DNA from: a virus
Reading direction: 5' to 3' (one strand)
Length of the DNA stretch: 64,000 nt
Virus record (IMG/VR): IMGVR_UViG_3300016665_000824
Coordinates: 32,001 to 96,000 of that record
This document shows positions 5,322 through 40,930 of this stretch, piece after piece (the first letter of the stretch is position 1; each line of letters begins with the position of its first letter). Below the pieces are notes generated by a model, which was given only the letters and a program-made list of their open reading frames with translations, did not search any database and had not been told where the DNA came from. The position numbers and the translations under genes were made by a program.

Positions 5322-5352
5322 GGTAACAAGGACTTGAGTCCTTGTTACCTTA
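5319..5352. terminator. Strong hairpin (15-bp stem, 4-nt loop) spanning the stop codons of two convergent genes
   Basis: TAAGGTAACAAGGAC-TTGA-GTCCTTGTTACCTTA; no flanking U-tract. Confidence 0.45.
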
Positions 5353-8300
5353 CTCCGCTAGTAACACCCGCTACTCGTCTCAAGACATTATTAAGCGTGT
5401 CATTAACAGCCTTCTGGACATCATTGCCCACACCCGCCGCAGAACTAATGTTGCTTTGAGTATTGATAGCGATCGGGGCATTAACCGTAATATTTCCACT
5501 TGTACCCAGAGCCGCACCCGTAGGATTGCCCTGTTGCTGAGGAACAAGATCTTTACCGCCAAGACTACCGAAAGCCTGCGCCAATGCCTCCGCTCTTTGA
5601 AGTTGTCCTTCGTCAAGCAAGGCGATCGGCTTGTCGAGTTTCTTCTGGGCTTCCTCAAATGCCTTGTCGTCGATCTTCAATGTCACGGGGTTCTCGGAGA
5701 TTTGCTTCGACACACGGTTAAATTCCGCTTCCAGTCCTGCGGTTAAATCTTTAACCTTGAGATCTGGGGCAACCAACACCTTGGAGAAGCCTTCATCGAT
5801 TTGCTGAGTTAACTTGTCGAACGAAGACGCGATCGCCTGTTCTGGCTTTGCTTCCTCCGTAGGTTTGCCACCGTACTTAGCGTTAAGCTCCTCAAACGAG
5901 TTGGCTTGAGCAGGATACTTCTTGTTAAGCTCCTCAAAGCTGCCTGCCATGCCCTTGTCGGGATATTTCTTGGCTAACTCCTCAAAGCTAGTAGCGAACG
6001 GTGCGTTATCAGGCTTTGGTTCGGGTGCAGCCGTAAATACTCCGCCCTGCTCAACCTGCCCAAGCAATGCCGAGGTGGGGTTCTTAAACGAAGCACCGCG
6101 AACATTAACAGGTTGGCTTGCCGCAGCCACAGCATTACTTACATCCGTGGTAGTCAATGCTGCTGTACCCGTATTTTGAGTTAAGCGAGCAAGCTGCTCT
6201 CGTTGTAGGCGCTCTTGCAGCGCAGGATCTCTAGTTGCGCCAATAACATCGCCGATCGCCGTATTAGTTTCGCCTTGCTGTTTATTGGCAAGAGCTTGAC
6301 GATCATTCTTGTTGACAATCTCGTTAACCTTGGCTTCGTCGGCAATGAAACCCTTTTCTTGCTGCAATCCACCCAATTCAAGAAAGTTCTTCTCCTGTCC
6401 AAGCTTGGCTTGAGCAAGTTTAAGCTTCGCCTCTTCGGACTGGGGACGTAGTTTAACCTCCAACTCGGCGGCTTTGATAGCAGCATCCTGTGAGGCAATG
6501 TCCACCTTCTTCTTGGCGATCGCGATTTCATTTTCGACCTTCTTGCGTTCAAGCAATAGGTCACGCTTCTGGATTTCCCGCTCCAAGGACTCGGCTTCAA
6601 ACTTTTGCTGTTGCTTGAGGGAATTAAGCTTAAGAACGGCAAGTTTTTCCGCAAGAATCAGCTTTTTCTCTTCGAGTTCGAGATCGGCAAAGTTGCCCTG
6701 ACCACCTGCGGCACGGATGGCAGCTTGTTGGCGATCGTAGATCTTGTTGAGAGCAGCAAACTCTGACTCGCGTAATGCCACTGTAGACTGGGCAAGTTTA
6801 TTTGCCGACTCGGATAGGCGGCTTTGATTCTCAAGCCCCTTTTCTAGTGCGGTGAATAATAGTTTTTGACGTTCAAGCTTGAGGTTTTGCTGCTCAATCG
6901 TGACCGCATACTTTTGTGATTCCAAGACTAGGCGATCGCGCACTGCGGAAACTAATCCTTCAATCGCCGCGAGTTCGGCTTCAGCGAGCTGTTTGGATAG
7001 TTCAGCAACCTTGATTAGATTAGCGTTCTTAGTTTCCTTGCTAACACCAACGCCCTTCTTCTCAAGATCGGCGATCGCCTTCTGCTTTTGTTGTTCGAGT
7101 TGCAGCTCTAAAGTGATACTGCGTTTACGTTCGGCAGTTTCTTGAAGCTTAATTTCAGATTCAAGCTTAATTCCCGACTTGCGGAGTTGAGCTATCTGAG
7201 CAAGACGCTGAGTCTCGCCAACCTTTTCGGCGGCAAGGGTCTCCTTAATCTGTGCATCCAATCCCTTAACAAAGCGCTCGGAACGGGCTTTGGCTATTTT
7301 TGCCTCAGCGTCCTTCCGTTTGTTGTCGGCATCCTCTTCTAATCGCGCTTTCTGGGCGGCGGTAGCCTTAACTAGATCAAGCTCTTTTTTGTTTGCGTCA
7401 GCAATAGAGTTTTTCGCCAAGTTTTGACGTTCGGCATCTGGCTTTGCGATTGAGGAAAGTTGATCCCTCTTTGTCTGCAACGTCCGAAGTTCAGACTCTT
7501 TCTTGGCGATCGCGTCCTGTTCCGCCTTGATCTGTGCGGTGTACTCCGAGGAATTAAAAAATGGCGCGTCTTTTACGGTGTTGAATCGCTGTAATGTCTC
7601 CGCATTCCCAGCTTTCAGACTAGACAAGGCTTTTTCCCCATCTTCAATCTGCTTCGTAATTCCCTCTAGCTGTCCCTGAGTATCCTCTGACAACTTTAAG
7701 GTGCTATCCAAGGTTCCTTTCTGGCTCTGGAGGCTATTAAGTCTTGATTGCAACACAGCAAGCTCGTCCGTTACTTTCTTAACGTCCTCGGCAGCGTTAT
7801 CTCCCGCAACACCCGTACTTATAGACTCTTGGAGAGCCTTCTTCCTTGCCTCTGCATCTTTGATCTGTTGACTGGTATCGTCGATCTTTCCTTGCAAGAC
7901 AGGAGCTTGAGCTTCCCTGACCTGCCGTATCTTTGAAGGATCTCCAGTTGCAGCAGCTAACTGCGCTTCCGCCAACTCGCGATCGCGCTTAATCTGTTGT
8001 TTCTGCTCATTAGCGTTGGTCTCCAAGATCTGCTGTCTTGCTCTTAGAGCCTTTTGATCGGCTTCAGACTGGGCTTGAATCTTCTTCTCCTCTAATTGTC
8101 CAGAGAGGGCGATCGATTCAGACTCAGAGATTCGCCCCGTGGCGAGCAAAGCTTGAATCTGGGAAAGTTGAGCGTCATAAATAGCTATGCGGCGATCCGC
8201 CTCCTTTTTGTACGCGGCAGTAATCGCTTCTTGAGCCTTTATCTGTAAATCGCGATCGGCAGAGACATTCGTAGCTACTTTTTGAAACGCTCCCGCAACT

Positions 8301-11300
8301 TCGTCTGCACGGAGAATCCCTGCATCTTGAAGGGCGTTAGCCGTTTCAAGCAACTCGCCCAACTTCGCCTTAAATAGCGCAGGATCTCCCGCAGACTTGT
8401 TTAAAGCGTCAAGGGCTGCATTATATTTTGAAGTTGCCTGCTCGATCGCATTACCAATACGAGGAAGATCAATAGCCTGAATTTGCAGGTTTACCGACTT
8501 GTAGGATTCTTGAAGTTTTCTAAGGGCTTCAAGTTCTCGATCTCTTTCTGCGTCTAAACCTTCTACAGCTTGAACCTGATTAATGATTGCCTCGATATTG
8601 TTGTTTCTTTCGGCGATCTCCTTCTTCTTATTCTCGATCTGAATATCAAAACGCGCAGCACCATCTTTGTCGCTTAGCGCTTCCGCCTTGGACTTTTCCT
8701 GCTCTAATTTAATTAAATCCTCTTGGAGTTTCTTCTGAGCAGACAGTCCTATTCCTAGATCAACCCGCCGAGAAGCTGACTGATTTAAGACGTTTTTATT
8801 ATCTTGCAATCTTATTTGGACGGCTTTCTCTTCAAGATTTCCTGCGCGATCGCCTAGACCTAACTTGTCGGAAGCGCCAAACGTTACCGTTCTTAGCCCC
8901 TCTCTTGCCGCGTCACCTGTAAGAGCAAAACCTTCTGTAACGCGAGTACCAATATTGTCTCTCTCTTTTTTAACCTTCTCCCTCAACGCGTCTTCGGAGT
9001 TGGTTGGTTTGCTTTGTAATCCCCTCAACTCTTTGAGTTTTGCGAGCTGTTGATCATACAGCTTTAAAGTGGGGTCATCTTGGAGGATGCTCTTGTCTTG
9101 GATTGAGGCAACATATTTTTCGCGTTCTGAGGTTAGGTTTGCTAGCTCAGAAGCGGCATCCTTTCCTTGCGATTTGTTTAGGATCGCAACCCTTGCGTCA
9201 CTATCTTTGAGCGCATCGTTGAGTTTGTCTACATTGGCTGTAGCTGCTTTTGTTTCCTGATCGACGTAGCCAACCAAGGTTGTTATTGCGGCGAAAGCTG
9301 CGCTTAACAATAATGTAGGACCAATTTCTGCGGCGAGGGCGGCGAAGGATTTGCTGATACCTTTGACATTCTCGGAAATAAACGAGGTAGCGCCTACAGC
9401 ACCCTTTTTGAGGTTTGAATAAAGTCCACCGACACTAACGTTCGCGTTTTGAGTGAAATCAGCAAAGCTAGACTTAGCTCGCGAGCCAAAATCTTTGACA
9501 CCAGAAAGAGCATCTTGGAAACCTGTCTTTAACCCAGCACCTAAATTTTTGAGGCTTAAATCGGGGAGAGAAATAGACTTGACTTGATTGACAAACTTAT
9601 CTATAGCGATACGAGAATTAGCCAAAGAAGCGGGAATATTTAGCTCTCTAAAGAACTTATCGAGTCCCAGTCTCGCGTTTGCAAGAGAGGTAGGGACGTT
9701 GATCTGGGAAAATGCTTTTTCAACCCCGTTGCGGAGGTTTACCAGCGAGGCAGGAATGTTGATATTTGCAAAGGCGTTCCGAATGCTAGCTTTAGTATTC
9801 TCAATTTGCGCGGGGAGATTTGCAAAGATACCAGTTTTTTGACTCGAATCCTGACTGAACCTTCCCTTAATGTCAGATATAAAACTACCAATAGAGTCGC
9901 CCAAGGACTTCAAAGAAGTTTTTGTCTTTGTGGCGATCGCTCCAATATCTTCTGCGAACTGTTTTGTGAACGGGACGGGAATTGGATTGGCAATAATCTG
10001 ACTTCGGAGCGACTTGATTCTGTCGGTAGTCTCCTGATAACTTTTAAGAGCCGCCGCACGAGCTTCGGGGGTTAACGACAGATCTGTAGAGTCTTTTTGG
10101 CTCACGATCGCCTGCTGTTTTAGTCCAGAGACCTCTCGTTTAGCGGCGACAACCTGAGTAGGATTTAGAGTCGTTGACTGAACTGGCTTGCCCCCAAGTA
10201 TTTCTCGAACACTATCGTTTAGCTTCTTGATGCGCCCAAAGGTTTCGCCAATACTGGCTCCAGCACCGCTAATTCCCGTGTTAATTGTCTTAAATACATT
10301 GGAGATTGTGCCACCAAACAGCTTGGTAACAGCGATCGCGATTAGCAATCCGCCAACTACTTTTTGAAAAGGATTGGAGTTCTCGCCAAAAGTAAAGAAC
10401 GGCAATATCGTGTCTGCAACCACCTTAATTACTGGTGCTAATACCGACCCTACCGTATCCGCAAACTTACGAATAGCTGCGGTTACATCCTGAATGATTT
10501 TTTGTAGACCTTTGTTCTTCAGGATTAACTGATCGAAGAAGACAAAACCAACAAATGTTCCAGCACCCAACAAGGCTGTTGATACGGCAAAAGACCTTGC
10601 CGCAGCTCCTGCCGCTTTTAATGAATTAGAGAAGATGCTGTTTACTTTCTCGGTATTTGTAGCGACATCGGCAAACTTGCCCAAGCTCTTGGCTGCGTCC
10701 GCAATCAACGGGCTAAACGAGCCAAATAGTTGGGACTTACCAACAATGCCTGAGAAAGCTGTTAAGGCGATCGGCGCTGCCTTCGTAAATCCTTGCAGTG
10801 CGGTTCCTAGCGCAGGAAATGCTTGAGTAAGTCCAATCAGTTTTACCCCAAAGCCACCTAGTGTTGGCAAAGCGGCAGTTATAACTCCCGCGAATGGCGA
10901 GAACGCACCGAGAACTTTGCCCAACTCTTTTTGGACTAAGCCAGCAGCACCAGGGATCTTGTTTAGATTCTCCGCCAACAACAGGAATCCAGCAGACCCT
11001 CGACCGACAACCGAACTTAAATTAGCAAAAGTGTTGACAACCCCGTTAGTACGCTTGTCAAGCAGGAAGAGAACTTCTCCCAAACCTGGTACAAGATTAA
11101 ACATCAACGAGAAGCCTTTGTTTAATGCCCCGATCGCGCCCGAAAGAACTTTTGCGCCGACGGAGATGCCGATCCAAATCCCTCCAAGAGGACCTACAAC
11201 ACCTGCAATTTGTTCAAACACATTAATAGCTGGCTGAACAACAGCAAGAGTAAGGCTCATCGCATCGGAAAAAGCCTTTACTGCGCCAGCGAGAGACTTG

Positions 11301-13780
11301 AATAGGTATTCTGGAACCTGCCCAAAGATCTGGAAGAATGGCCCCGCGAGACTTTTTAGGGTCGCAATCACGTTCTTGAATACGTCAAACAGTATTCCTG
11401 CGAGACTCCCTACTTGAGCAGCGATCGCGTCTTTATTCTTTGAGAAATACTGGTAAAACCCGTCAAGTTCCGCTACTAAAGGTGCGAGGAATTTCTCCCC
11501 AGCGAGTCTGCCGATCTCATCAACTAGCTCTTGAATATTGCTAACAATCCCACCCACGGACTGAGCAGCTAGCTTGTTTCCAGACTTAAATGCTTCTAAT
11601 CGACCTAAAAGCTCTTTGACGAAGGTTCCTTGAGACTTCCACTTAGCCACCATCTCATTGTTGAGGTTAAGCGATTTGGCAAGAGCTGAGTTTTGGTCAA
11701 TAGTTCCCGAAGTTATACTAACAACCTCTTGACGGGCTTGATATAAAGGTATGCCAAGCGTTCCGAGTGCGGCGGCGAACGAGGTTGTAATATTAGCAGC
11801 GTCATTCAAGGACGCGCCAATGTTGCTTGCCTGCCCAGCAACGATCTGAAAAACCCCGACAAGATCTTTACTGGTTACGCCGACCAGCTCTAACGAGTCT
11901 TTACGAATTTTATCGATCGCCCCTTCAACCGCAGGGCCAACCGCCTTGATCGCTTGAGTTGGATCTGATACGCGATCGCCATTAACTACGATTCTATTGG
12001 TTGCCGCTAAGCTCGCCTGAGTAGAGAGTAGTTGCTCTTGGAGCCTGATGTTTTGCCCAATCAACAGATCGAAAGGGCCGTTTTGTACAAATCCTTGGAG
12101 TGCCTGCAATCCCAATCCCAAGAAAGCAAGTCTCTGAGATACTTCAAAGATCGCGTTGGTTGCCTTGCCAGCACCTTCGCTAATTAGATTGAATACTTCT
12201 AGTGGTTCCGTCGCCCCCGCCACTGGAGCAACCACTGCGGCGGCAATATCTACAGGTTCTTGCAGCTTCGGGGCTATCTCTTGAGTCTTTTGAAACCCCT
12301 TAACGATAACATCATCAACACTATCGATGACAGTACCGACTTCGGCAAGGATTGTTGATCTCAGTCCATCAACAAAATTCTTACCTGCGATCGCGCCAGT
12401 ATCTTTTAAAAGCGAACTAAATGTTCCGCCAAAAAACTCGTCAATCTTGGTTGCAAGTTTTTGCAGTGAGCCATCCCCGCTTCCGATAGAATCAATCGCC
12501 GCGCCCAACCCTCCGTCAATAGCATCGACAGCTTTTAGGGCTAAATTCCTGAGAGGCGCAAGGATGCTAGTATCTTCTACGCTAAACAAGCTATTGAGAG
12601 CCTGTCCAACGCCTCCCTTTTGAGTCTCTATTAAAGGGCGGAGGATGGCAAAAGCGGATCTTAAATCCTCTGGAATTGCTTTTTCTAGTCCATTAAATAA
12701 CTGTCCAGACAACGCATTTCCAAAATCTTGCAACTCATTAGAGGCAACAATCGACCCCAAATTTGCCACCCCGATCTTGTTGGCAATCAGTTTTGCTAGT
12801 GGTGGTAGTGGCAACTTATCTACAAGCTGAGGGATTCGCCCCGCTAGGCGGTTGATCAGCTCAGATACAGAGCCGCCTAACTGTTCGTCAAGAATTTTAA
12901 ATTGATCGGTCGCCTCAGATCTGCTGCCGACGATTGCCCTGCCGACCGATCCTCCTAAAGCGCTAGATAAGCGCCCTACAACTCTTTGTCCGTCCTCAAC
13001 GTTTGGCGCGATTGCGTTAACGGCAAAAGCTTTAGCAGCACCCGATACCGACCCACCAGCCAACTGCTTCGACACTTCCGACAGCAATCCAGTTTTTGCC
13101 GCAGTCCGAAATGAGTTGGCGACAATTGAGGTTAAATCCGCCCCGAAAGCTTGGTTAACAATACCTTTTAAAGCGTCGGGGAGTCCTCCCCCAACAACGC
13201 CCGAAATGAGTGAGTCGGCGATCGCGTTATCTAGCGTTCCAGTAAAAGCCTCAACTCCCACTCCAAGCTTGCGCTGAATTTCTTGATTTAGCTTTGAAGC
13301 CCTAACATTTGCTTCTAACGCTTTACCGAAACTGTTTGCAGAATCGCTAAGTATCTGCGTAATTCTCTTGCCGTTATCCGAAAATATTGCAGACTGAGCT
13401 TGCTCTGCCGACTGCTTAGATAAGAATCCTCCTCCGACATCTTTTCCTGCAGAGGTAATCCCCTTGATTACCTTTGAGAGCGGAGCTAGTTTTGAAACTG
13501 CACTGTCGGCGACATTCGAGATCTGTTCTAAAAATATTTTGCCCGACTGCGTATCTAGTACATCTCGAACCGACTGAATTGCGTCTCTCAGCCCTCCAAA
13601 CGTGCCAATCGCGGTTGCCCCTACCGTGCTGATCGTTCCGCCAAGGGCTTGTACAGATCCCTTTGTTACGTCCGCAACAACACCAACACTTTTTAGACCA
13701 GCAGCTATCTCCGAAACTTGTTTGCTTGCTTGATCTTTCGCCTGTATTAAGATCTCAACAATATTGGTTTGCGGAGCCAT
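5345..13780 (-). CDS. Giant virion protein, tape-measure-like (tail length tape measure or ejection/internal virion protein)
   Basis: Uninterrupted 2811-aa ORF; Gly/Ala/Ser-rich hydrophobic N-terminal third, long E/K/Q/A/L-rich coiled-coil centre, internal tandem repeats, position between head and tail-fiber genes. Confidence 0.6.
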   Translation of the reverse strand: MAPQTNIVEILIQAKDQASKQVSEIAAGLKSVGVVADVTKGSVQALGGTISTVGATAIGTFGGLRDAIQSVRDVLDTQSGKIFLEQISNVADSAVSKLAPLSKVIKGITSAGKDVGGGFLSKQSAEQAQSAIFSDNGKRITQILSDSANSFGKALEANVRASKLNQEIQRKLGVGVEAFTGTLDNAIADSLISGVVGGGLPDALKGIVNQAFGADLTSIVANSFRTAAKTGLLSEVSKQLAGGSVSGAAKAFAVNAIAPNVEDGQRVVGRLSSALGGSVGRAIVGSRSEATDQFKILDEQLGGSVSELINRLAGRIPQLVDKLPLPPLAKLIANKIGVANLGSIVASNELQDFGNALSGQLFNGLEKAIPEDLRSAFAILRPLIETQKGGVGQALNSLFSVEDTSILAPLRNLALKAVDAIDGGLGAAIDSIGSGDGSLQKLATKIDEFFGGTFSSLLKDTGAIAGKNFVDGLRSTILAEVGTVIDSVDDVIVKGFQKTQEIAPKLQEPVDIAAAVVAPVAGATEPLEVFNLISEGAGKATNAIFEVSQRLAFLGLGLQALQGFVQNGPFDLLIGQNIRLQEQLLSTQASLAATNRIVVNGDRVSDPTQAIKAVGPAVEGAIDKIRKDSLELVGVTSKDLVGVFQIVAGQASNIGASLNDAANITTSFAAALGTLGIPLYQARQEVVSITSGTIDQNSALAKSLNLNNEMVAKWKSQGTFVKELLGRLEAFKSGNKLAAQSVGGIVSNIQELVDEIGRLAGEKFLAPLVAELDGFYQYFSKNKDAIAAQVGSLAGILFDVFKNVIATLKSLAGPFFQIFGQVPEYLFKSLAGAVKAFSDAMSLTLAVVQPAINVFEQIAGVVGPLGGIWIGISVGAKVLSGAIGALNKGFSLMFNLVPGLGEVLFLLDKRTNGVVNTFANLSSVVGRGSAGFLLLAENLNKIPGAAGLVQKELGKVLGAFSPFAGVITAALPTLGGFGVKLIGLTQAFPALGTALQGFTKAAPIALTAFSGIVGKSQLFGSFSPLIADAAKSLGKFADVATNTEKVNSIFSNSLKAAGAAARSFAVSTALLGAGTFVGFVFFDQLILKNKGLQKIIQDVTAAIRKFADTVGSVLAPVIKVVADTILPFFTFGENSNPFQKVVGGLLIAIAVTKLFGGTISNVFKTINTGISGAGASIGETFGRIKKLNDSVREILGGKPVQSTTLNPTQVVAAKREVSGLKQQAIVSQKDSTDLSLTPEARAAALKSYQETTDRIKSLRSQIIANPIPVPFTKQFAEDIGAIATKTKTSLKSLGDSIGSFISDIKGRFSQDSSQKTGIFANLPAQIENTKASIRNAFANINIPASLVNLRNGVEKAFSQINVPTSLANARLGLDKFFRELNIPASLANSRIAIDKFVNQVKSISLPDLSLKNLGAGLKTGFQDALSGVKDFGSRAKSSFADFTQNANVSVGGLYSNLKKGAVGATSFISENVKGISKSFAALAAEIGPTLLLSAAFAAITTLVGYVDQETKAATANVDKLNDALKDSDARVAILNKSQGKDAASELANLTSEREKYVASIQDKSILQDDPTLKLYDQQLAKLKELRGLQSKPTNSEDALREKVKKERDNIGTRVTEGFALTGDAAREGLRTVTFGASDKLGLGDRAGNLEEKAVQIRLQDNKNVLNQSASRRVDLGIGLSAQKKLQEDLIKLEQEKSKAEALSDKDGAARFDIQIENKKKEIAERNNNIEAIINQVQAVEGLDAERDRELEALRKLQESYKSVNLQIQAIDLPRIGNAIEQATSKYNAALDALNKSAGDPALFKAKLGELLETANALQDAGILRADEVAGAFQKVATNVSADRDLQIKAQEAITAAYKKEADRRIAIYDAQLSQIQALLATGRISESESIALSGQLEEKKIQAQSEADQKALRARQQILETNANEQKQQIKRDRELAEAQLAAATGDPSKIRQVREAQAPVLQGKIDDTSQQIKDAEARKKALQESISTGVAGDNAAEDVKKVTDELAVLQSRLNSLQSQKGTLDSTLKLSEDTQGQLEGITKQIEDGEKALSSLKAGNAETLQRFNTVKDAPFFNSSEYTAQIKAEQDAIAKKESELRTLQTKRDQLSSIAKPDAERQNLAKNSIADANKKELDLVKATAAQKARLEEDADNKRKDAEAKIAKARSERFVKGLDAQIKETLAAEKVGETQRLAQIAQLRKSGIKLESEIKLQETAERKRSITLELQLEQQKQKAIADLEKKGVGVSKETKNANLIKVAELSKQLAEAELAAIEGLVSAVRDRLVLESQKYAVTIEQQNLKLERQKLLFTALEKGLENQSRLSESANKLAQSTVALRESEFAALNKIYDRQQAAIRAAGGQGNFADLELEEKKLILAEKLAVLKLNSLKQQQKFEAESLEREIQKRDLLLERKKVENEIAIAKKKVDIASQDAAIKAAELEVKLRPQSEEAKLKLAQAKLGQEKNFLELGGLQQEKGFIADEAKVNEIVNKNDRQALANKQQGETNTAIGDVIGATRDPALQERLQREQLARLTQNTGTAALTTTDVSNAVAAASQPVNVRGASFKNPTSALLGQVEQGGVFTAAPEPKPDNAPFATSFEELAKKYPDKGMAGSFEELNKKYPAQANSFEELNAKYGGKPTEEAKPEQAIASSFDKLTQQIDEGFSKVLVAPDLKVKDLTAGLEAEFNRVSKQISENPVTLKIDDKAFEEAQKKLDKPIALLDEGQLQRAEALAQAFGSLGGKDLVPQQQGNPTGAALGTSGNITVNAPIAINTQSNISSAAGVGNDVQKAVNDTLNNVLRRVAGVTSGVR
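5872..6000 (-). repeat. Three imperfect tandem ~42-48-bp repeats near the 3' end of the giant ORF
   Basis: Encodes SFEELAKKYP / SFEELNKKYP / SFEELNAKYG. Confidence 0.65.
9581..9820 (-). repeat. Four tandem 60-bp (20-aa) repeats inside the giant ORF
   Basis: Encodes NIPASLVNLRNGVEKAFSQI / NVPTSLANARLGLDKFFREL / NIPASLANSRIAIDKFVNQV / NLPAQIENTKASIRNAFANI. Confidence 0.7.
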
Positions 13781-33109: not shown

Positions 33110-33812
33110 TGACTTTCGCCTTGATTTGCTTCTTGACTTGAGTTCTCAGGTCTGGGGATAGTCGCTTCAGTCCCTGATTCAATATTTGCTGAGTTGTCTT
33201 CGCGTCTGTACCGCGACGAAAGTTGACACCCATGATCGTGTCGGGATCTGGTGGGTTTTCCAAGATTTCAATACCATTTCGCTCGCAGTAAGCGCGAGAC
33301 ACAGCGATCGCAGTACACTTGCAATTCCAATCACATGGAAATCCTATTCGCCTCCAGAAAGGAGAGGCTGCGGGAATCCCTTTATTGTGTAAAGCCTTAT
33401 GTGCTGGACGAGGCACTACCGAGTCGCGATGTCTCCATACCCATATATCGAGTTTCGCCATCACTTCAGGACTCCGCATCACCTTCTCCCTACCCTGCCA
33501 ATAAGACTTGTTGATATTCGTATCAAAAATCAACTTAATCTTCTGACCATTCGGCTGATATCCTGCGCGACCGATACGACGGTTAAAGCTACGAGTAAAT
33601 TGCTCGAAGGACGTGCCATCTTCAAGGGCTTTACCGATTAACCACTTAGTTGCTTCAAGTAAATCTGCTCGCATTAATCCAGATACCATAAAAGCGTGGT
33701 CGTGGATACGGGCATCTAAACCTTTGTAGTCGGATATAGGTAGAGCTAACCGATCGCGTAAGGCTGCGATCGCATCAACAGGTTTTAACTTCAAATACTC
33801 AGGGGTTGCCAC
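33102..33812 (-). CDS. Phage head morphogenesis protein, Mu F-like / SPP1 gp7 family
   Basis: 236 aa; WVWRHRDSVVPRPAHKALHNKG matches Mu F-like signature. Confidence 0.65.
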   Translation of the reverse strand: MATPEYLKLKPVDAIAALRDRLALPISDYKGLDARIHDHAFMVSGLMRADLLEATKWLIGKALEDGTSFEQFTRSFNRRIGRAGYQPNGQKIKLIFDTNINKSYWQGREKVMRSPEVMAKLDIWVWRHRDSVVPRPAHKALHNKGIPAASPFWRRIGFPCDWNCKCTAIAVSRAYCERNGIEILENPPDPDTIMGVNFRRGTDAKTTQQILNQGLKRLSPDLRTQVKKQIKAKVNG

Positions 33813-36394
33813 TAGCTCACCCTCCGAAACTTGTCGCGGGTTTCCCAGTAGGCTGCGAGGTAGACTTCCGATGTGGCGATCGCGTCGTTATTGAGTTGAC
33901 TGTCAATGAAGTCGCGTCCCTCCTTCTGCTTTTTCTGGATTTGCTCTTGTTGATAGGCGATCGCTTTTTGTAGTTTTGAGATCTGCTTCTCAGGGGTTAG
34001 TGTTCCAAATCCAGTTATATCTATCCCCATATTGGTTAGTGCTGTTTGAGATGCAGCTAGCGGCTTCTTCCCTGACTGAATTCGAGCAAGGGTCGCCTCT
34101 AAGGTCTTAGTGGTTGCCTCCATCTTGCTGATGTTGTTTTGAAGCGTTTTCAAGTCTATAGGCGGAGTAGCAGTCTTTGATTCAGTACTTGCAGCAGTAT
34201 CCACTGATTTATTTTTACGCGATCGTTTTTGGGTTGCGGTAGTACTGGTTGCAGTACTTACTGATTTACTGCTAGGCGATCGCGTAGAACTTTTTGAAAG
34301 GGGTGGCGCGGCGGAAGACTTAGCTCCGTAGTTTTCGGGATATCGGGCTTTGTTTTCTTGCACCAGTGATTCGTAGTAATCGGCGAATCCGTCTGCCGCT
34401 TCTTTTGCCTGTTCAAGGGAAAAGAAGCGGGTTTTATCTCTGTTCCTACCGCTAAACATATCGGCTAAATCTTCAGGTTCGTGCTCTTCGGTATAAACCA
34501 TCCACCCATCATCTTCTTTTTGGATGGAAATAAAGAGTGATGCGTCTTTGTCTGAAGCCTTTTTTCTTGCGTTGGAGCTGTATCTGTCAGCAGAGTCTGG
34601 ATCTTTAACCCACTCTCCAGCAATAACCTTGTCCAGCTTTTTATTGTATGTTTCTCGTGCTTTCTGTCTTCTCTCTGCGGCTTTCTGTTTTTTGGCAAAC
34701 TCTGCCAGTGTTTTTTCGGCGCTAGATACTAAACTGTTGGACTGACTTGAAGTCAAGTTGTCGGGTTTGCTGCTAGGCGATCGCTCTTGAGGGGTTTCGG
34801 GTTCTGCTTTAGGTGGTTTCGGAGCAACATACTTTTTACCAATCATCGCCTCATGCAGCAGCATTAATTCCTTGGCTTCAGAAGTATCAACACCTAGTGT
34901 CTCGATATCCCTAGCAATGACGGAGGCAAGCTTAGACTTTTGTTCTGGGGTAGCCTTGTCCGCAAACACCTCCTGATCCGACTGAGGAAACTTCTTGGTG
35001 TTTCTCAGCTCGTAAGCCGCATTTATGTTTGCTATCCCATCAACAGCCTTGGAAATCCTAACAGCTTCTTCCTGTGCTATTTCTTTCTTGCTTTTAGGTT
35101 TGACTGGAACATTCGCCTCCTGAGCGATCGCCGCTACTGGCTGGATAACTTCTTCAGTTTTTGGTTTTACCGCCCTGCTGCGACTCTTCTTAGGCTCGCC
35201 CTCTACGGGGTTTTTGGTTGATCTTTCTGTGTTAGGAGTCTCGTCTACCTGAGTTTTTGGAGGCTTAGCCGCTTTCTCTGTCGATCGAGACTTCGCCCGT
35301 GGGTTCTTGATGTTCTCGGCGATCGCCTCTTGAATCTTGTCTTGATTACGAGTAAACCGCATCTCGCCTACACGAATAACTCCTTTCCCATCCCTAAGAT
35401 CGATAGAGTATTGATTTGCACTCTCGGCAAGAGGAGTTCCTTTTTTCTTGTCAATGGCTCCACGAAACTGGATAGAGTCCTCAAGTCCATGTTCTTTAAG
35501 CTTGTCGTATAGTCGCTGCAAATCGACAGACTGTTTTTCGCGAGCAACCTTGTTTACAATACCGTTTCCTGCGCGAGCCTTTACGTCGTCGATACGGACA
35601 TATCCCTCATCATCAGCTAACTCAAGGTTCTGCTTCTTCCTCTCGATCTCTTCTGGGAGGAGTTGCTTACGTTTCAGTTCCGCAGCTAGAGCTAGTTCAT
35701 ACCCCCTCTTTTGGGCGGGGTAATTAACCGAAACTAGCTCCTTCAGGGCTTGAATCTTGGGTTGCTCAGCTTCGTATGCGGACTGGGCTTCTGGAGTTCT
35801 AACCTCTTGAGTCTTCTGCGGTTTTGTTACAGGAGTAGACTCAACCTGTTCAACTATGGGTTCAACCTCTTTAATATCTGTGTTTGCGGGTGGAGTTGAC
35901 TTGTTTGCGATCGCCGCACCAACACCCAATCCAACAGTCGCAGCCGCACCAACACCTACCGCAACATTTCTTGAAGTATTAGAGGGCGGAAGAGTTGGTC
36001 TCTGCCTAACGGGTTCCTGATAAGGTTCACTAGAACGCCCTGCGTTCACCACTGCGCCAGTCAAGGCTAGTCCGCCAACAGCTAATCCCGCACCGATCGC
36101 CGCTTTACTAAGAAAGCCCATCTCAGATTTTGGTGGTTCCTGCGATCGCGCCAATGCTCGCTCTAATTTTGATGGTGGTAGTACATTTACGCCCTGTCCT
36201 TGTGGAGCTTTCCGATAATAAAAACCACCCCTAACACGTCTATCCTGAACGCAAACATAACCTGCCCGTGGAGCGCAAGCATCGTAGCGCAACTTAACTT
36301 CTAGAGCCGCATCAATATACTCTTGAGGCATTACATCAAGAGTAATTTCGTCTAGATACAGACCAGCAAGGTAGTTCTTATCGAGATCTGGCAT
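33812..36394 (-). CDS. Large virion protein with N-terminal Cys-motif/hydrophobic module
   Basis: 860 aa; CAPRAGYVCVQDRRVRGG motif then AAIGAGLAVGGLALTGAVV and NVAVGVGAAATVGLGVGAAIA segments; Pro/Lys-rich low-complexity remainder. Confidence 0.55.
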   Translation of the reverse strand: MPDLDKNYLAGLYLDEITLDVMPQEYIDAALEVKLRYDACAPRAGYVCVQDRRVRGGFYYRKAPQGQGVNVLPPSKLERALARSQEPPKSEMGFLSKAAIGAGLAVGGLALTGAVVNAGRSSEPYQEPVRQRPTLPPSNTSRNVAVGVGAAATVGLGVGAAIANKSTPPANTDIKEVEPIVEQVESTPVTKPQKTQEVRTPEAQSAYEAEQPKIQALKELVSVNYPAQKRGYELALAAELKRKQLLPEEIERKKQNLELADDEGYVRIDDVKARAGNGIVNKVAREKQSVDLQRLYDKLKEHGLEDSIQFRGAIDKKKGTPLAESANQYSIDLRDGKGVIRVGEMRFTRNQDKIQEAIAENIKNPRAKSRSTEKAAKPPKTQVDETPNTERSTKNPVEGEPKKSRSRAVKPKTEEVIQPVAAIAQEANVPVKPKSKKEIAQEEAVRISKAVDGIANINAAYELRNTKKFPQSDQEVFADKATPEQKSKLASVIARDIETLGVDTSEAKELMLLHEAMIGKKYVAPKPPKAEPETPQERSPSSKPDNLTSSQSNSLVSSAEKTLAEFAKKQKAAERRQKARETYNKKLDKVIAGEWVKDPDSADRYSSNARKKASDKDASLFISIQKEDDGWMVYTEEHEPEDLADMFSGRNRDKTRFFSLEQAKEAADGFADYYESLVQENKARYPENYGAKSSAAPPLSKSSTRSPSSKSVSTATSTTATQKRSRKNKSVDTAASTESKTATPPIDLKTLQNNISKMEATTKTLEATLARIQSGKKPLAASQTALTNMGIDITGFGTLTPEKQISKLQKAIAYQQEQIQKKQKEGRDFIDSQLNNDAIATSEVYLAAYWETRDKFRRVS

Positions 36395-36953: not shown

Positions 36954-37039
36954 GATTTAGATCTGAATACGTTGTCCGATAATAAGCGATCGCCAATTCA
37001 GCTTCATTTAAAATCTCCGAAGGCGCGATCGCTAAGATT

Positions 37040-38593
37040 TTGGCATTTAGTTGTGCGATCGCTATGGCAAAATTTACAACAGGAGATCAGGCTTCAACTG
37101 CTGCTCTGTCGCGAGTTGACACTCTTCTCCAAACTATAAATACCGACGCAGACTATGCGCTTTGGCGGGAATGGATTTATGACAGGGCGATCGCCAAACT
37201 AGCACTAGGCTTAACTGGCGGAGGTGGAAGCTCCACTTCAATTCTTGCGGGTTTCAAGGCGATCGCTAATGGCACTGGCTACAGTATTGGCGATTTGATA
37301 TTTTTGCGGCAAACAGGAACTAACCAAACCGAATATTACAACGGTACTACAGGTTTAGTTATTACACCTGCCCCACCTAGCAGCGATCTTGGCTCTATTA
37401 TCTCTTCTAGTAATGTTGCTGTTACATCACTTCCTCCATTGCCGTCTGGCGCAAATACCATTGGCGCTATATCAAATGCTAGTTTTGGTATTAGTGGTAG
37501 CTTGCCAGCATTTGCTAGCACACCCACAGTAAATATTGGTACTACTGGCGCGATCGCCACTGATAGCACCTTACAGCAAGTAAGGGACGCGATCAAAGCA
37601 CAGATCGATATCGCCTCAACAATTTGGACAGATAACACAGATACTTTTTATGTACGACGAGATCTGGTAAACGAAGGAACGGGAGTAATCACTGTATCTT
37701 TTACTTTGCCAGACGGTACGGCGGCTACACCTAGCGCTGGACTTAGACCTCTAGCAACCGTAGATAAAGATGTTCTTAGTGATTATTACGATGTATTGAT
37801 TGCGGGTACTGGCTATGCGATCGGGGATTTATTAGCAAGGGTTGCGATCATTGATGCAAACGGTGCTTCTCCAACATCAACATTTATCTGGCTGAATTTG
37901 ACGGCAGGGACAATCCTCGGAACAGCACCTAGTTCTGCAAATATTGAAAGAGCGAACGAAACTATCGGTGCTAGGCAAAGCGGTACATGGAATATCACCA
38001 ATATTAGTGGTACGGTATCACTACCTACGGGAGCCAGTACATCGGCTAATCAGGCTACAGCGATCTCAAGCCTTGGCAGCATTGACGGAAAACTCCCTGC
38101 GAGTTTAGGGGTAAAAACTGCTGCTAATTCACTTGCTGTAACGCTTTCAACGGATGGAATCGCGAGTGGAATTGACACAAAAATTGGCGAAGTCCAAACA
38201 ACTCCAACTGCTAATACTGTTTTGGCGAGATTAAAAAATATTGCTGATGCGTTGGTGTTTGGGGCAAAATCACCAGCTAATAGTATTTCAGTTACCCAAG
38301 CTTTCGCCGCAACATCTACCCTAGCGAATGTGGCTAGTAGTGCGACATCAGTTAGCTTGTTAGCTGCCAACAATAACCGCAAAACAGCAATCATTCTAAA
38401 TGATTCGACTTCAGATTTATACGTTACTCTCAACGCAAGCGCCGCCAGTACGACGAATTATTCATTATTTTTAGCCGCTAAAGTTGGTAACACGCCATCA
38501 TTTTTAGCTATAAATGGTGATGATTATTCGGGCGAAATTCGTGGAATTTGGAGTAGTGCTAATGGTTTCGCAAGAATTACGGAGGTCGTGTAA
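37040..38593 (+). CDS. Tail fiber-like protein
   Basis: 517 aa, Ser/Thr/Gly/Ala/Asn-rich beta-type composition; precedes second fiber-like gene. Confidence 0.55.
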   Translation: MAFSCAIAMAKFTTGDQASTAALSRVDTLLQTINTDADYALWREWIYDRAIAKLALGLTGGGGSSTSILAGFKAIANGTGYSIGDLIFLRQTGTNQTEYYNGTTGLVITPAPPSSDLGSIISSSNVAVTSLPPLPSGANTIGAISNASFGISGSLPAFASTPTVNIGTTGAIATDSTLQQVRDAIKAQIDIASTIWTDNTDTFYVRRDLVNEGTGVITVSFTLPDGTAATPSAGLRPLATVDKDVLSDYYDVLIAGTGYAIGDLLARVAIIDANGASPTSTFIWLNLTAGTILGTAPSSANIERANETIGARQSGTWNITNISGTVSLPTGASTSANQATAISSLGSIDGKLPASLGVKTAANSLAVTLSTDGIASGIDTKIGEVQTTPTANTVLARLKNIADALVFGAKSPANSISVTQAFAATSTLANVASSATSVSLLAANNNRKTAIILNDSTSDLYVTLNASAASTTNYSLFLAAKVGNTPSFLAINGDDYSGEIRGIWSSANGFARITEVV

Positions 38594-39498
38594 TGATTAT
38601 TGTTAATAATTCCACTAGTGCTGCTGGCATTGGGAAAAACTATTTTAAGAATCCCAATTTTCAAGTAATCCAAGGCACTGCATCAGGGACGCTCGCCAAT
38701 TCCACAGCATTACCCACAGCATCACTAGGATACCTAGGTGAGACTGAATGGGGTATTGCGGCGGCGGGTGGCACTCCTGCTTATGCTTTTAGCTCAGCGA
38801 ATGAATCTGTTACCTTTACGGGTGCAGCATCAACTACCGCTATTTATTTGCTTCAAAGACTTGAAAGCAGAGATATTACTACTCTAGCCAACAAACTGGC
38901 GACAATTACTTTTAGTGCTGAGATATCTAATTCGCTGCTTACTTCGGTAATTTGGGAAGTATTTCGCCCTACTACCACTGCTGACACTCATGGCACAATT
39001 GGCACACCTACGCAGACATTGATTGCTAGTGGAACGTTCACCGTAAACTCAACGCTGACAAAGTATAGCGCCACATTTACCCTTCCTGCATTAGCTGCTA
39101 ATGGACTGGAGGTAAGACTAAGAGTAGGGGCGCAAACTTCTGGAACTTGGGTGGTGTCAAGGTTGCAATTAGAAGAAGGTAGTGTTGCTACTAACTTCAT
39201 TTGTGATGATTATTTGACTGAATTGAATCAATGTCAAAGATACTTTAGAAGATTATCAGATTATCTATATGTTTATTTTGGTACTACTGGTGTATTAAAT
39301 AGTGAACGAATGCATTTAAATATGTTTGGTACTACTAGAATTAGAAATTTAATAGCACAAAATTCAATAGGTGGAACTGGAGTTACTATATCAGCAGGAC
39401 TTAATGAAGATTCAACTAGAGCTAATTATATAAATAATGCTGGAGCTGGTTACTATGGTGGCAATCCATTATATACAGTGTCAGCACACATCCCTTAA
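38593..39498 (+). CDS. Tail fiber protein (receptor-binding candidate)
   Basis: 301 aa; [11 protein letters not shown]...LNQCQRYF motif typical of phage tail fibers; AT-rich 3' third. Confidence 0.6.
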
Positions 39499-39515
39499 AA
39501 ATACAAATAAAAACA

Positions 39516-39896
39516 ATGGAATTTACATATAAACTAATACAAAATCAACCAAACTCCATCATAAGACTTGAAGATGGAGCAATTATCCCAGAAGGGCATA
39601 ATGGTGATTGGCAACTTTACGAGGCATGGTTAGCTGAAGGAAATACGCCTGAAGCCGCTGATGCGCTGCCTATTGTAGTGCGGGAAATCGATGCTCGTAA
39701 ACTGCGATTAGCTTTGCTTCAATTAGGGCATCTATCTACCGTCACTAGCGCTATTTCTAGCCTTGGTGAGGCTGCAATCATTGATTGGGAATATGCCACA
39801 ATCATTCGCGAAGATTACCCTTTGGTACTGGCTTTGGCAAGCAATTTAAATTTGGATATTAAAGCAATATTTGATTTAGCGAATTCATTGGTGTAA
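39516..39896 (+). CDS. Hypothetical protein (possible fiber chaperone)
   Basis: 126-aa ORF immediately after fiber gene. Confidence 0.4.
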
Positions 39897-39898
39897 TT

Positions 39899-40444
39899 GT
39901 GGCAGGAGATCTAATCCCAATCTTAAAGAGCTATTTTGATTTTGCGGTGATCGCGCAAATATCGGACAATAGAGGTACGGTTGGGATACCTTCTCAATCA
40001 AATCCCCCCGACAGCAGCATCAGCCAGATCAGCACTGCTGCTGTCGGTAGTGCTGTCGTTGTTACTGCTCTTTTTAAATTGTTTGAAAAATTTGGAACAA
40101 ATGTAATTGATGGGCAAAAAAGCAGGCTTAGCCTTGATTTAAAGGCTAAAGAGCTAGAGCTAGAATTTGAAAAGGCTGAAAAGTTGGCAGCCAGAAAAGA
40201 GGAAGAGCGCAAAACTGAACTAATCGAACAAATACTGAATAACGCACTGTCACACGTTTACAGCACAGCCAAAGAAAACAAAGAAATTTACCATGAATTG
40301 CTTGAAAAATTCCAAAAAAGTAACGAAATTAACGAGAAAGCTTGGAGCAAAATAGAAGAACAAAGCCAAGAAATCCATTTGTTAAACCAAACTTTAAAAG
40401 ATGTTTTAGCGACGCTAAGTTTGAAAGATCGTCAAAAAACCTAA
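39899..40444 (+). CDS. Hypothetical protein with hydrophobic segment and coiled coil
   Basis: 181-aa ORF; AAVGSAVVVTALF hydrophobic stretch then K/E-rich coiled coil. Confidence 0.4.
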   Translation: MAGDLIPILKSYFDFAVIAQISDNRGTVGIPSQSNPPDSSISQISTAAVGSAVVVTALFKLFEKFGTNVIDGQKSRLSLDLKAKELELEFEKAEKLAARKEEERKTELIEQILNNALSHVYSTAKENKEIYHELLEKFQKSNEINEKAWSKIEEQSQEIHLLNQTLKDVLATLSLKDRQKT

Positions 40445-40510
40445 AACAAAAGCCCAACTCAAGCTATGGCAAGAATTGGGCGTAGGTTACGGACAGGGGT
40501 GGCTATGGGG

Positions 40511-40930
40511 TCAGGCCATTCCTACTTGATCTTGACCAGATAACGTAGCGATCGCCAACCACTCCGCTAGTCCATCGGCAAATCCTTTGTCACTGTATTC
40601 GTCAAGGCTGTAGATAGAGTCGATGCGATCACGCACCTCTTCTAGCGTCAAACCTTCTTTTTGCCATTGTTTTAGCTTTCGCCCAATCACTTGATTGAAC
40701 TTCTCGATTTGTGGCGCTAGATTTTCTCTCGCCAACTCAGAAATGCGATCGCGCAAATCATTCTCTTCGATTTCGGAGATCTCATCGTCAAACCGTTGCA
40801 GATATTCGGGATTTTCTTGAGCAATGCGAACGCGGAGTAGCTGTATCGCATCATCGAACAGGATGTCGATTTCGTTAGGTGCGATCGCGTCAGTCCTATA
40901 GCCAAGCTTTTCTAATACTTCGAGTTTCAT
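40511..40930 (-). CDS. Hypothetical protein
   Basis: 139-aa ORF, ATGA overlap with upstream gene. Confidence 0.45.
   Translation of the reverse strand: MKLEVLEKLGYRTDAIAPNEIDILFDDAIQLLRVRIAQENPEYLQRFDDEISEIEENDLRDRISELARENLAPQIEKFNQVIGRKLKQWQKEGLTLEEVRDRIDSIYSLDEYSDKGFADGLAEWLAIATLSGQDQVGMA

Follow-up and report, generated by a model that had tools for sequence, protein, structure and literature searches.

The AT-rich end of the tail fiber gene described here is most probably of foreign origin: taken as a whole, the evidence is best explained, and with considerable confidence, by acquisition of a fiber tip from a low-GC phage lineage through recombination at conserved anchors. The stretch of viral DNA analyzed (64 kb; here called the window) has an overall GC content of 0.465 and carries phage genes for a portal protein, head maturation protease, major head protein, primase, and DnaB-type helicase. 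The HIP1 octamer (GCGATCGC) is present in 139 copies, which indicates a cyanobacterial host.

The tail fiber (receptor-binding protein) gene (38593..39498, plus strand) encodes 301 amino acids. Residues 73 to 224 of the product match PHROG 4492, "tail fiber protein" (E value, 5.8e-19), and residues 73 to 218 share 51% identity with S2L_50, an annotated tail fiber of Cyanophage S-2L. Weaker matches are found in S-CRM01, S-N03, and B3/B23, and all of these matches, including that to S-2L, end at residues 218 to 222. The tail fiber label given to this open reading frame (ORF) in an earlier sequence-only reading of the same DNA agrees with the PHROG match and the S2L_50 homology, and a probable role as a virion tail fiber component is further suggested by the predicted structure, whose fold matches include fiber and tailspike tips. 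Other searches returned nothing for this region: 50,697 phage records contained no nucleotide match to positions 37000 to 40500, Pfam gave no family for the fiber or for the 517-, 126-, and 181-amino-acid proteins, and a sequence search of the PDB with the fiber and 126-amino-acid proteins found no match.

The AlphaFold model of the fiber protein (mean pLDDT, 76) consists of a β-sandwich (residues 29 to 195), a short helix (residues 207 to 214, ELNQCQRY), and a second, small β-sandwich (residues 218 to 297) modeled with a pLDDT above 90. The conserved N-terminal β-sandwich domain (38677..39177, plus strand) superimposes, in its predicted fold, on carbohydrate-binding modules of the CBM4 type (CBM4/9, CenC-type), and a Pfam search with E values up to 1 reported no CBM family for the protein. 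The variable C-terminal domain (residues 219 to 296; 39247..39480, plus strand) is predicted to be a small β-sandwich that may resemble H-type lectins such as the discoidin I C domain and Helix pomatia agglutinin. This domain of about 80 residues is likely the receptor-binding tip, a role suggested by its modeled lectin-like fold, the diversity of cassettes found in its place, and an excess of nonsynonymous over synonymous change. Binding of host glycans by the conserved, CBM-like domain is likewise conceivable. Two conserved blocks border the variable domain. On the left is a block encoding LEEGSVAT (39169..39195, plus strand), which is common to genes of the backbone type and of the AT-rich type and is assigned as the left crossover zone from a three-way alignment, the break in similarity to locus L046, and the compositional boundary. 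On the right is a 3' anchor (39481..39498, plus strand; GCACACATCCCTTAA) encoding SAHIP and the stop codon, with 72 to 99% residue conservation among 120 homologues and conserved DNA in 33 loci.

The sequence-only reading had noticed an abrupt AT-rich shift, accompanied by altered codon usage, in the 3' third of the fiber gene. Sliding-window analysis of GC content and codon usage, which it had proposed as a check, found the shift to be real. The GC minimum of the entire window falls here at all three sizes used: 0.247 at 39221 (150 nt), 0.285 at 39171 (270 nt), and 0.298 at 39171 (400 nt). Similarly, the GC content at third codon positions (GC3) is 0.075 over the final 80 codons of the gene; none of the 1,494 80-codon windows from 57 ORFs (mean, 0.458; standard deviation, 0.072) has a lower value, and this one lies >5 standard deviations below the mean. 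Two-boundary maximum-likelihood segmentation of positions 37040 to 40444 places the low-GC segment at 39189 to 39564, with a GC content of 0.287 inside and 0.434 outside and with each boundary accurate to about 30 to 40 nt. This tract (39189..39564, plus strand) is the putative imported segment, an assignment that draws on the segmentation, the window-wide GC minimum, and a block of high identity (39235-39625) shared with an AT-rich contig described below. Both of the limits given earlier require correction. The shift had been placed just after the CQRYF motif (39230), and it instead begins at about 39160 to 39190, inside the block coding for the LEEGSVAT region, some 40 to 70 nt earlier. Nor does it end at about 39500 with the fiber stop codon: the tract continues for about 65 nt, crossing a 17-nt spacer and reaching about 39564, some 17 codons into the next gene.

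Low GC content could be a by-product of the amino acids of the C-terminal domain, which is rich in N, Y, I, K, and F, with no transfer involved. GC1 and GC2 are indeed somewhat lower in the tract than elsewhere (0.38 and 0.46 versus 0.46 and 0.57), but this drop is far smaller than that at third positions (0.06 versus 0.34), so the shift lies mainly in synonymous codon choice rather than in amino acid content. Furthermore, homologous cassettes with 57 to 66% amino acid identity to that of the window, in loci L012 and L013, are encoded at a GC content of 0.40 to 0.41 (GC3, 0.24 to 0.27), the low-GC tract runs on through the noncoding spacer, and its boundaries coincide with homology breakpoints. 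The GC3 result largely refutes an origin in amino acid composition, which is thus extremely unlikely. Nor is low GC typical of this region of the gene, as the other C-terminal versions are not AT-rich: cassettes at 15 other loci have GC contents of 0.39 to 0.48 and GC3 values of 0.24 to 0.44, like their own N-terminal domains.

The tract limits are matched by breaks in homology to a relative that shares the backbone. Locus L046 (43% GC) is 98 to 100% identical to the window over 38258 to 38680 and 93.8% identical over 38258 to 39192; similarity drops to 38 to 60% across 39160 to 39520 and resumes at about 39573. Between these breakpoints L046 carries a different cassette of normal GC content. 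The coincidence of its homology limits (39192 and ~39573) with the compositional boundaries supports a horizontally exchanged module.

The same AT-rich segment is present in three loci from other samples (L043, L050, and L051) at 95 to 100% identity over approximately 39098 to 39640, outside three variable patches. The sequences upstream of it in these loci are unrelated to that of the window and to one another, with GC contents of 0.43 to 0.53 in L051 and 0.23 to 0.30 in L043. The flanks in L043 and L045, both contigs of only 1.5 kb, have GC3 values of 0.07 to 0.12. Recurrence of the junction also bears on the possibility that the mosaic is an assembly chimera, in which the conserved fiber domain served to join reads of two phages, one of normal GC content and one AT-rich. 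The window does come from a MEGAHIT-style metagenome contig of 134 kb (ERZ27292652 k141_20893), and the conserved domain provides long, nearly identical stretches between lineages. Nevertheless, the junction (39098-39280) is 100% identical in the SRR21892037 (L043) and SRR14556254 (L051) assemblies and 95 to 98% identical in SRR27753951 (L050), and three sources (JGI, Logan, and ENA) and two long contigs contain the exact 301-amino-acid protein. An identical or nearly identical junction in three other samples makes a chimera unlikely, and we consider its probability to be minimal.

A donor-like context is provided by L077, an 8.1-kb phage contig of 32.5% GC that carries a tape-measure gene and no HIP1 sites. 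A search with the C-terminal 97 residues alone, limited by its word index, returned one protein, and this led to L077. Identity to the window is 50 to 60% in the N-terminal domain and 83 to 100% across 39235 to 39625 (84.5% overall within this shared segment), and the sequences diverge again beyond it. The AT-richness of the shared segment is matched in L077 by that of the entire fiber gene and of the gene that follows it. Alignment of the window, L046, and L077 places the left crossover in a block of 24 to 27 nt (TTAGAAGAAGGTAGTGTTGCTACT) encoding LEEGSVAT, which is common to both parental types; positions 39196 to 39235 of the window closely match neither. The fiber gene of L077 itself (5830-6760) is broken by several frameshifts and stops upstream of an intact downstream gene and represents either a pseudogene or sequencing or assembly errors.

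At the right-hand end of the tract, the AT-richness of the spacer and of the 17 codons that follow it is just as pronounced in L002 and L016, whose cassette is another one, of normal GC content. The last ~65 nt of the low-GC tract may hence not belong to the import and may instead represent an AT-rich junction that is conserved. This observation speaks in favor of a local functional cause that would make the tract AT-rich with no import, for example, an internal promoter or a lack of mRNA structure that serves translational coupling to the next gene. Such effects span tens of nucleotides and not ~375 nt, however, and other cassette types in the same position are not AT-rich. A scan for promoters and terminators found no enrichment, with three promoter-like sites against 6.0 expected. 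One of them is strong: a near-consensus sigma-70-like sequence (TTGACA, 17 nt, AATAAT; 11 of 12 positions) on the minus strand at 39237-39209, antisense within the AT-rich tract. Its occurrence in DNA this rich in AT is probably due to chance, as such sites are fewer than in shuffled sequences. A local function may account for the last ~65 nt, and it is very unlikely to be the cause of the tract as a whole.

The earlier suggestion that the AT-rich third is a horizontally exchanged fiber module thus holds with regard to exchange, on which composition, homology breakpoints, spread over several backbones, and the AT-rich context in L077 agree. Confinement of the module to the fiber gene does not hold, since the exchanged piece crosses the end of the gene.

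Comparison of fiber C termini across relatives, also proposed in the sequence-only reading, revealed a conserved proximal part joined to nonhomologous distal parts. More than 1,258 homologues were found. In an alignment of the best 120, residues 16 to 218 are ~90% conserved and residues 219 to 296 only 5 to 25%, and the five conserved residues of the SAHIP anchor follow directly after the variable domain. The C-terminal domains of 92 homologues, 69 to 118 amino acids in length, sort into 23 clusters that show no detectable similarity to one another, and the DNA of the 3' anchor and of the beginning of the downstream gene is found repeatedly in different loci. The C-terminal domain of the fiber is therefore an exchangeable cassette throughout the population, with at least 23 unrelated versions between LEEG...CQRY[FY] and [SA]AHIP-stop anchors. 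Switching between invertible or silent cassettes, as in the Mu G segment or shufflons, was considered and rejected, as the cassette has no flanking inverted repeats and the 64-kb window contains no silent cassette, paralogue of the fiber, or second copy of either.

Some relatives carry fiber genes in tandem. Two or three copies are found in L034/L035 (4001-7567), L012 (4-2251), and L020 (35-1991), each with its own C-terminal cassette and most followed by a gene of the 126-amino-acid type, so that each of these phages seems to combine several tip specificities. In L043 (126-536) and L045 (43-453), the fiber protein has an N-terminal extension of 137 amino acids that is a separate upstream gene in other phages (e.g., L004, 4167-4550), a difference that reflects fusion or fission of domains in the fiber module. 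Viral contigs yielded only relatives of ≤68% identity to this AT-rich extension.

Variation within the AT-rich cassette is of a different kind from cassette replacement. Between 38800 and 39640, the window and L043 are nearly identical except for 25 differences, all within 39281 to 39468, which change 16 codons nonsynonymously and 1 synonymously and fall in three hypervariable patches: residues 230 to 239 (39280..39309, plus strand; codons 230, 231, 232, 234, 236, 237, and 239), 256 to 267 (39358..39393, plus strand; codons 256, 258, 260, 262, 263, and 267), and 280 to 283 (39430..39441, plus strand; codons 280, 282, and 283). The third patch also has a one-codon indel in L050, L051, and L045. 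Nei-Gojobori counts of synonymous and nonsynonymous differences over codons 229 to 284 are 0.5 and 23.5 for the window versus L043, 0.5 and 21.5 for the window versus L050, and 0 and 7 for L043 versus L050, compared with a pN/pS ratio of ~0.1 to 0.2 in the conserved domain (Fisher P values of 0.001 to 0.01); codon positions 1 and 2 hold 23 of 24 differences. In the predicted structure, the patches appear to be centered on the loops that follow strands 2, 4, and 6, and these loops would lie at the same end of the sandwich if it has a simple up-and-down topology. The pattern of substitutions fits diversifying selection driven by a receptor.

Targeted hypermutation, by a diversity-generating retroelement (DGR) or otherwise, could in principle produce such a domain, with the A/T-richness deriving from an adenine-rich template. 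Nearly identical copies do differ almost wholly at codon positions 1 and 2, and the differences frequently come in pairs affecting one codon and group into three patches close to the C terminus. However, no template-like repeat of 39231 to 39500 exists in the 64-kb window, even with 7-nt seeds, and no reverse transcriptase is present among the 24 ORFs scanned. In the changed codons, positions 1 and 2 vary among all four bases and third-position A and T are fixed (A unchanged in both copies at 6 of the 16 codons, and T likewise constant), which is inconsistent with adenine- or thymine-specific mutagenesis. In addition, diversity at the cassette level consists of unrelated sequences of differing length. 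A DGR mechanism was rejected on these grounds, and hypermutation of this type has an exceedingly small likelihood as the source of the tract.

A further feature of the cassette copies is a block of 45 nt (39238-39282) in which every base is the same in five of them (the window, L043, L050, L051, and L045), including the copy of L045, which is otherwise ~22% divergent (pS of ~0.4 to 0.6 nearby). Most of the block is identical in L077 as well. It could be a recombination anchor or reflect constraint at the nucleotide level.

Import of the AT-rich tip would have proceeded by homologous recombination at the conserved anchors, with a left crossover at ~39169 to 39195 and a right crossover at ~39564 to 39625. 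We infer this mechanism, and likewise the direction of transfer, in which the donor would be a phage lineage with a genome of ~30 to 33% GC. The segment would retain the codon usage of the donor (GC3 of ~0.06 to 0.08) within a genome of 46.5% GC, and because this usage is still unadjusted to the new genome, the transfer would be recent. During or after the spread of the cassette, the patches at residues 230 to 239, 256 to 267, and 280 to 283 would have gained almost only amino acid-changing substitutions, and near-exclusive nonsynonymous change in three patches would be expected if these contact a variable host receptor.

A broader hypothesis is that the fiber family represents a population-wide cassette system of freshwater cyanophages, in which conserved DNA anchors are kept for promoting tip exchange and the three loops are diversified by a targeted process other than a DGR. 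The anchors would be the LEEG block, the invariant 45-nt stretch just after it, and the 3' anchor with the 5' end of the next gene. Targeted diversification of the loops, if true, would explain 16 nonsynonymous versus 1 synonymous codon change on an identical background. We regard this hypothesis as unlikely in its entirety, and import of a low-GC tip by recombination remains the preferred explanation.

Mosaic fiber genes that swap C-terminal receptor-binding regions are well known from lambda stf, P2 H, Mu S, and T-even gp37/gp38, and modular Klebsiella and Escherichia coli tailspikes likewise exchange their C-terminal regions (see also PMC10408124, PMC8262889, and PMC10579305). The fiber of the window shares with mosaic tail fibers a conserved virion-proximal part and an interchangeable C-terminal, putative specificity part, breakpoints at conserved linkers, a downstream assembly-type gene that travels with the fiber gene, and differing composition between parts. 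Unlike the fibers of lambda, P2, Mu, and T-even phages, to which it is unrelated in sequence, the family has a CBM4-like conserved part, a cassette of only ~80 residues, a five-residue C-terminal anchor (SAHIP) kept after the cassette, and HIP1-rich cyanobacterial hosts. The swap is a known kind of host-recognition module exchange among phages and involves no new mechanism. The new points are that the exchanged piece crosses the gene end, that the putative donor lineage is AT-rich, that the cassette family is large, and that three loops appear, from their substitution pattern, to be under diversifying selection.

The C-terminal domain of the window alternates short hypervariable patches with conserved segments, and in this it resembles the adhesin gp38. 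In the T2/T6 type of gp38, hypervariable segments are separated by conserved glycine-rich motifs. By analogy, the conserved segments between patches could serve as recombination anchors. The two differ in that no relationship in sequence or detected fold links them, and the variable domain of the window lies within the fiber protein and not in a separate adhesin. Variation at codon positions 1 and 2, focused on loops of a C-terminal, lectin-like tip, is also reminiscent of DGR variable regions such as Mtd of Bordetella phage BPP-1, from which the window differs in having no template repeat, no reverse transcriptase in the ORFs scanned, and no adenine specificity; diversity in the fiber family, unlike that of Mtd, arises mainly by replacement of whole cassettes. 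A named relative is S-2L (MW334946.1), in which S2L_50 resembles the fiber of the window throughout the conserved domain, as far as the CQRYF motif, and gene order is the same, the fiber gene being followed by S2L_51, a homologue of the 126-amino-acid gene. In contrast to the fiber of the window, S2L_50 is 413 amino acids long, with a long N-terminal extension and an unrelated C-terminal part of 90 amino acids.

The window offers a clean, well-bounded natural case of the swapping of a putative receptor-binding domain in cyanophages: it shows the compositional scar and the breakpoints, and it can be set beside both a relative of the same backbone and a donor-like genome. With its numerous homologues, many tip cassettes, and fixed anchors, the family lends itself to use as a scaffold for host range prediction or engineering in phages of bloom-forming or mat-forming cyanobacteria. 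It also provides a marker for following the movement of genes among phages whose hosts differ strongly in GC content.

The downstream partner gene (39516..39896, plus strand), which encodes a tail fiber assembly-like protein of 126 amino acids, lies 3' of the fiber gene in nearly all related loci. The N-terminal 45 residues of its product are 51% identical (E value, 5e-12) to S2L_51 of S-2L, a "tail fiber assembly-like protein"; its PHROG matches are only of unknown function, and it has no match to the Tfa family model (Pfam Caudo_TAP). No covariation of cassette type with the C-terminal half of this protein was seen among related loci: L003 and L025 have the full-length type alongside other or distant cassettes, and L012 and L013, with the cassette type of the window, match only its first 51 to 60 residues. 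A role as a cassette-specific chaperone is consequently not supported.

Upstream of the fiber gene is a gene of the same module encoding 517 amino acids (37040..38593, plus strand), whose C-terminal ~100 residues are conserved in relatives. Residues 415 to 517 have tblastn matches of 57 to 76% identity directly upstream of the fiber gene in related loci, and the corresponding DNA (38258-38593) is 98 to 100% identical in L046. Both neighbors belong to a fiber module of four plus-strand genes (37040..40444) amid minus-strand genes, with an atypical composition overall: GC3 is 0.25 to 0.36, versus 0.41 to 0.57 in most other ORFs. These features suggest a foreign or mixed origin for the module as a whole, and more than one transfer, including older ones, may be layered in it. 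The largest HIP1-free gap in the window (37550-40548) is also located at the fiber module; it was discarded as independent evidence, being not rare enough by a Poisson estimate (P of ~0.2 for a mean spacing of ~460 nt and ~140 gaps).

Near identity between the window and L043 begins at about 38800, and the first ~165 nt of their shared region (38635-38800, corresponding to 537-700 of L043) contain 31 mostly synonymous differences. This pattern suggests that recombination also took place at another, separate breakpoint, located within the conserved domain.

Two long minus-strand ORFs lie elsewhere in the window. One of 2,811 amino acids (5345-13780), among minus-strand genes downstream of the head genes, had no PHROG match at E values up to 1e-5, and its product could be a giant virion or tail protein. 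The other, of 860 amino acids (33812-36394), lies just before the fiber module and has low-complexity stretches of Pro, Lys, Ser, Thr, Ala, and Glu; its residues 595 to 682 show a weak match (39% identity) to a sequence in L001, a provirus locus of Phormidium tenue.
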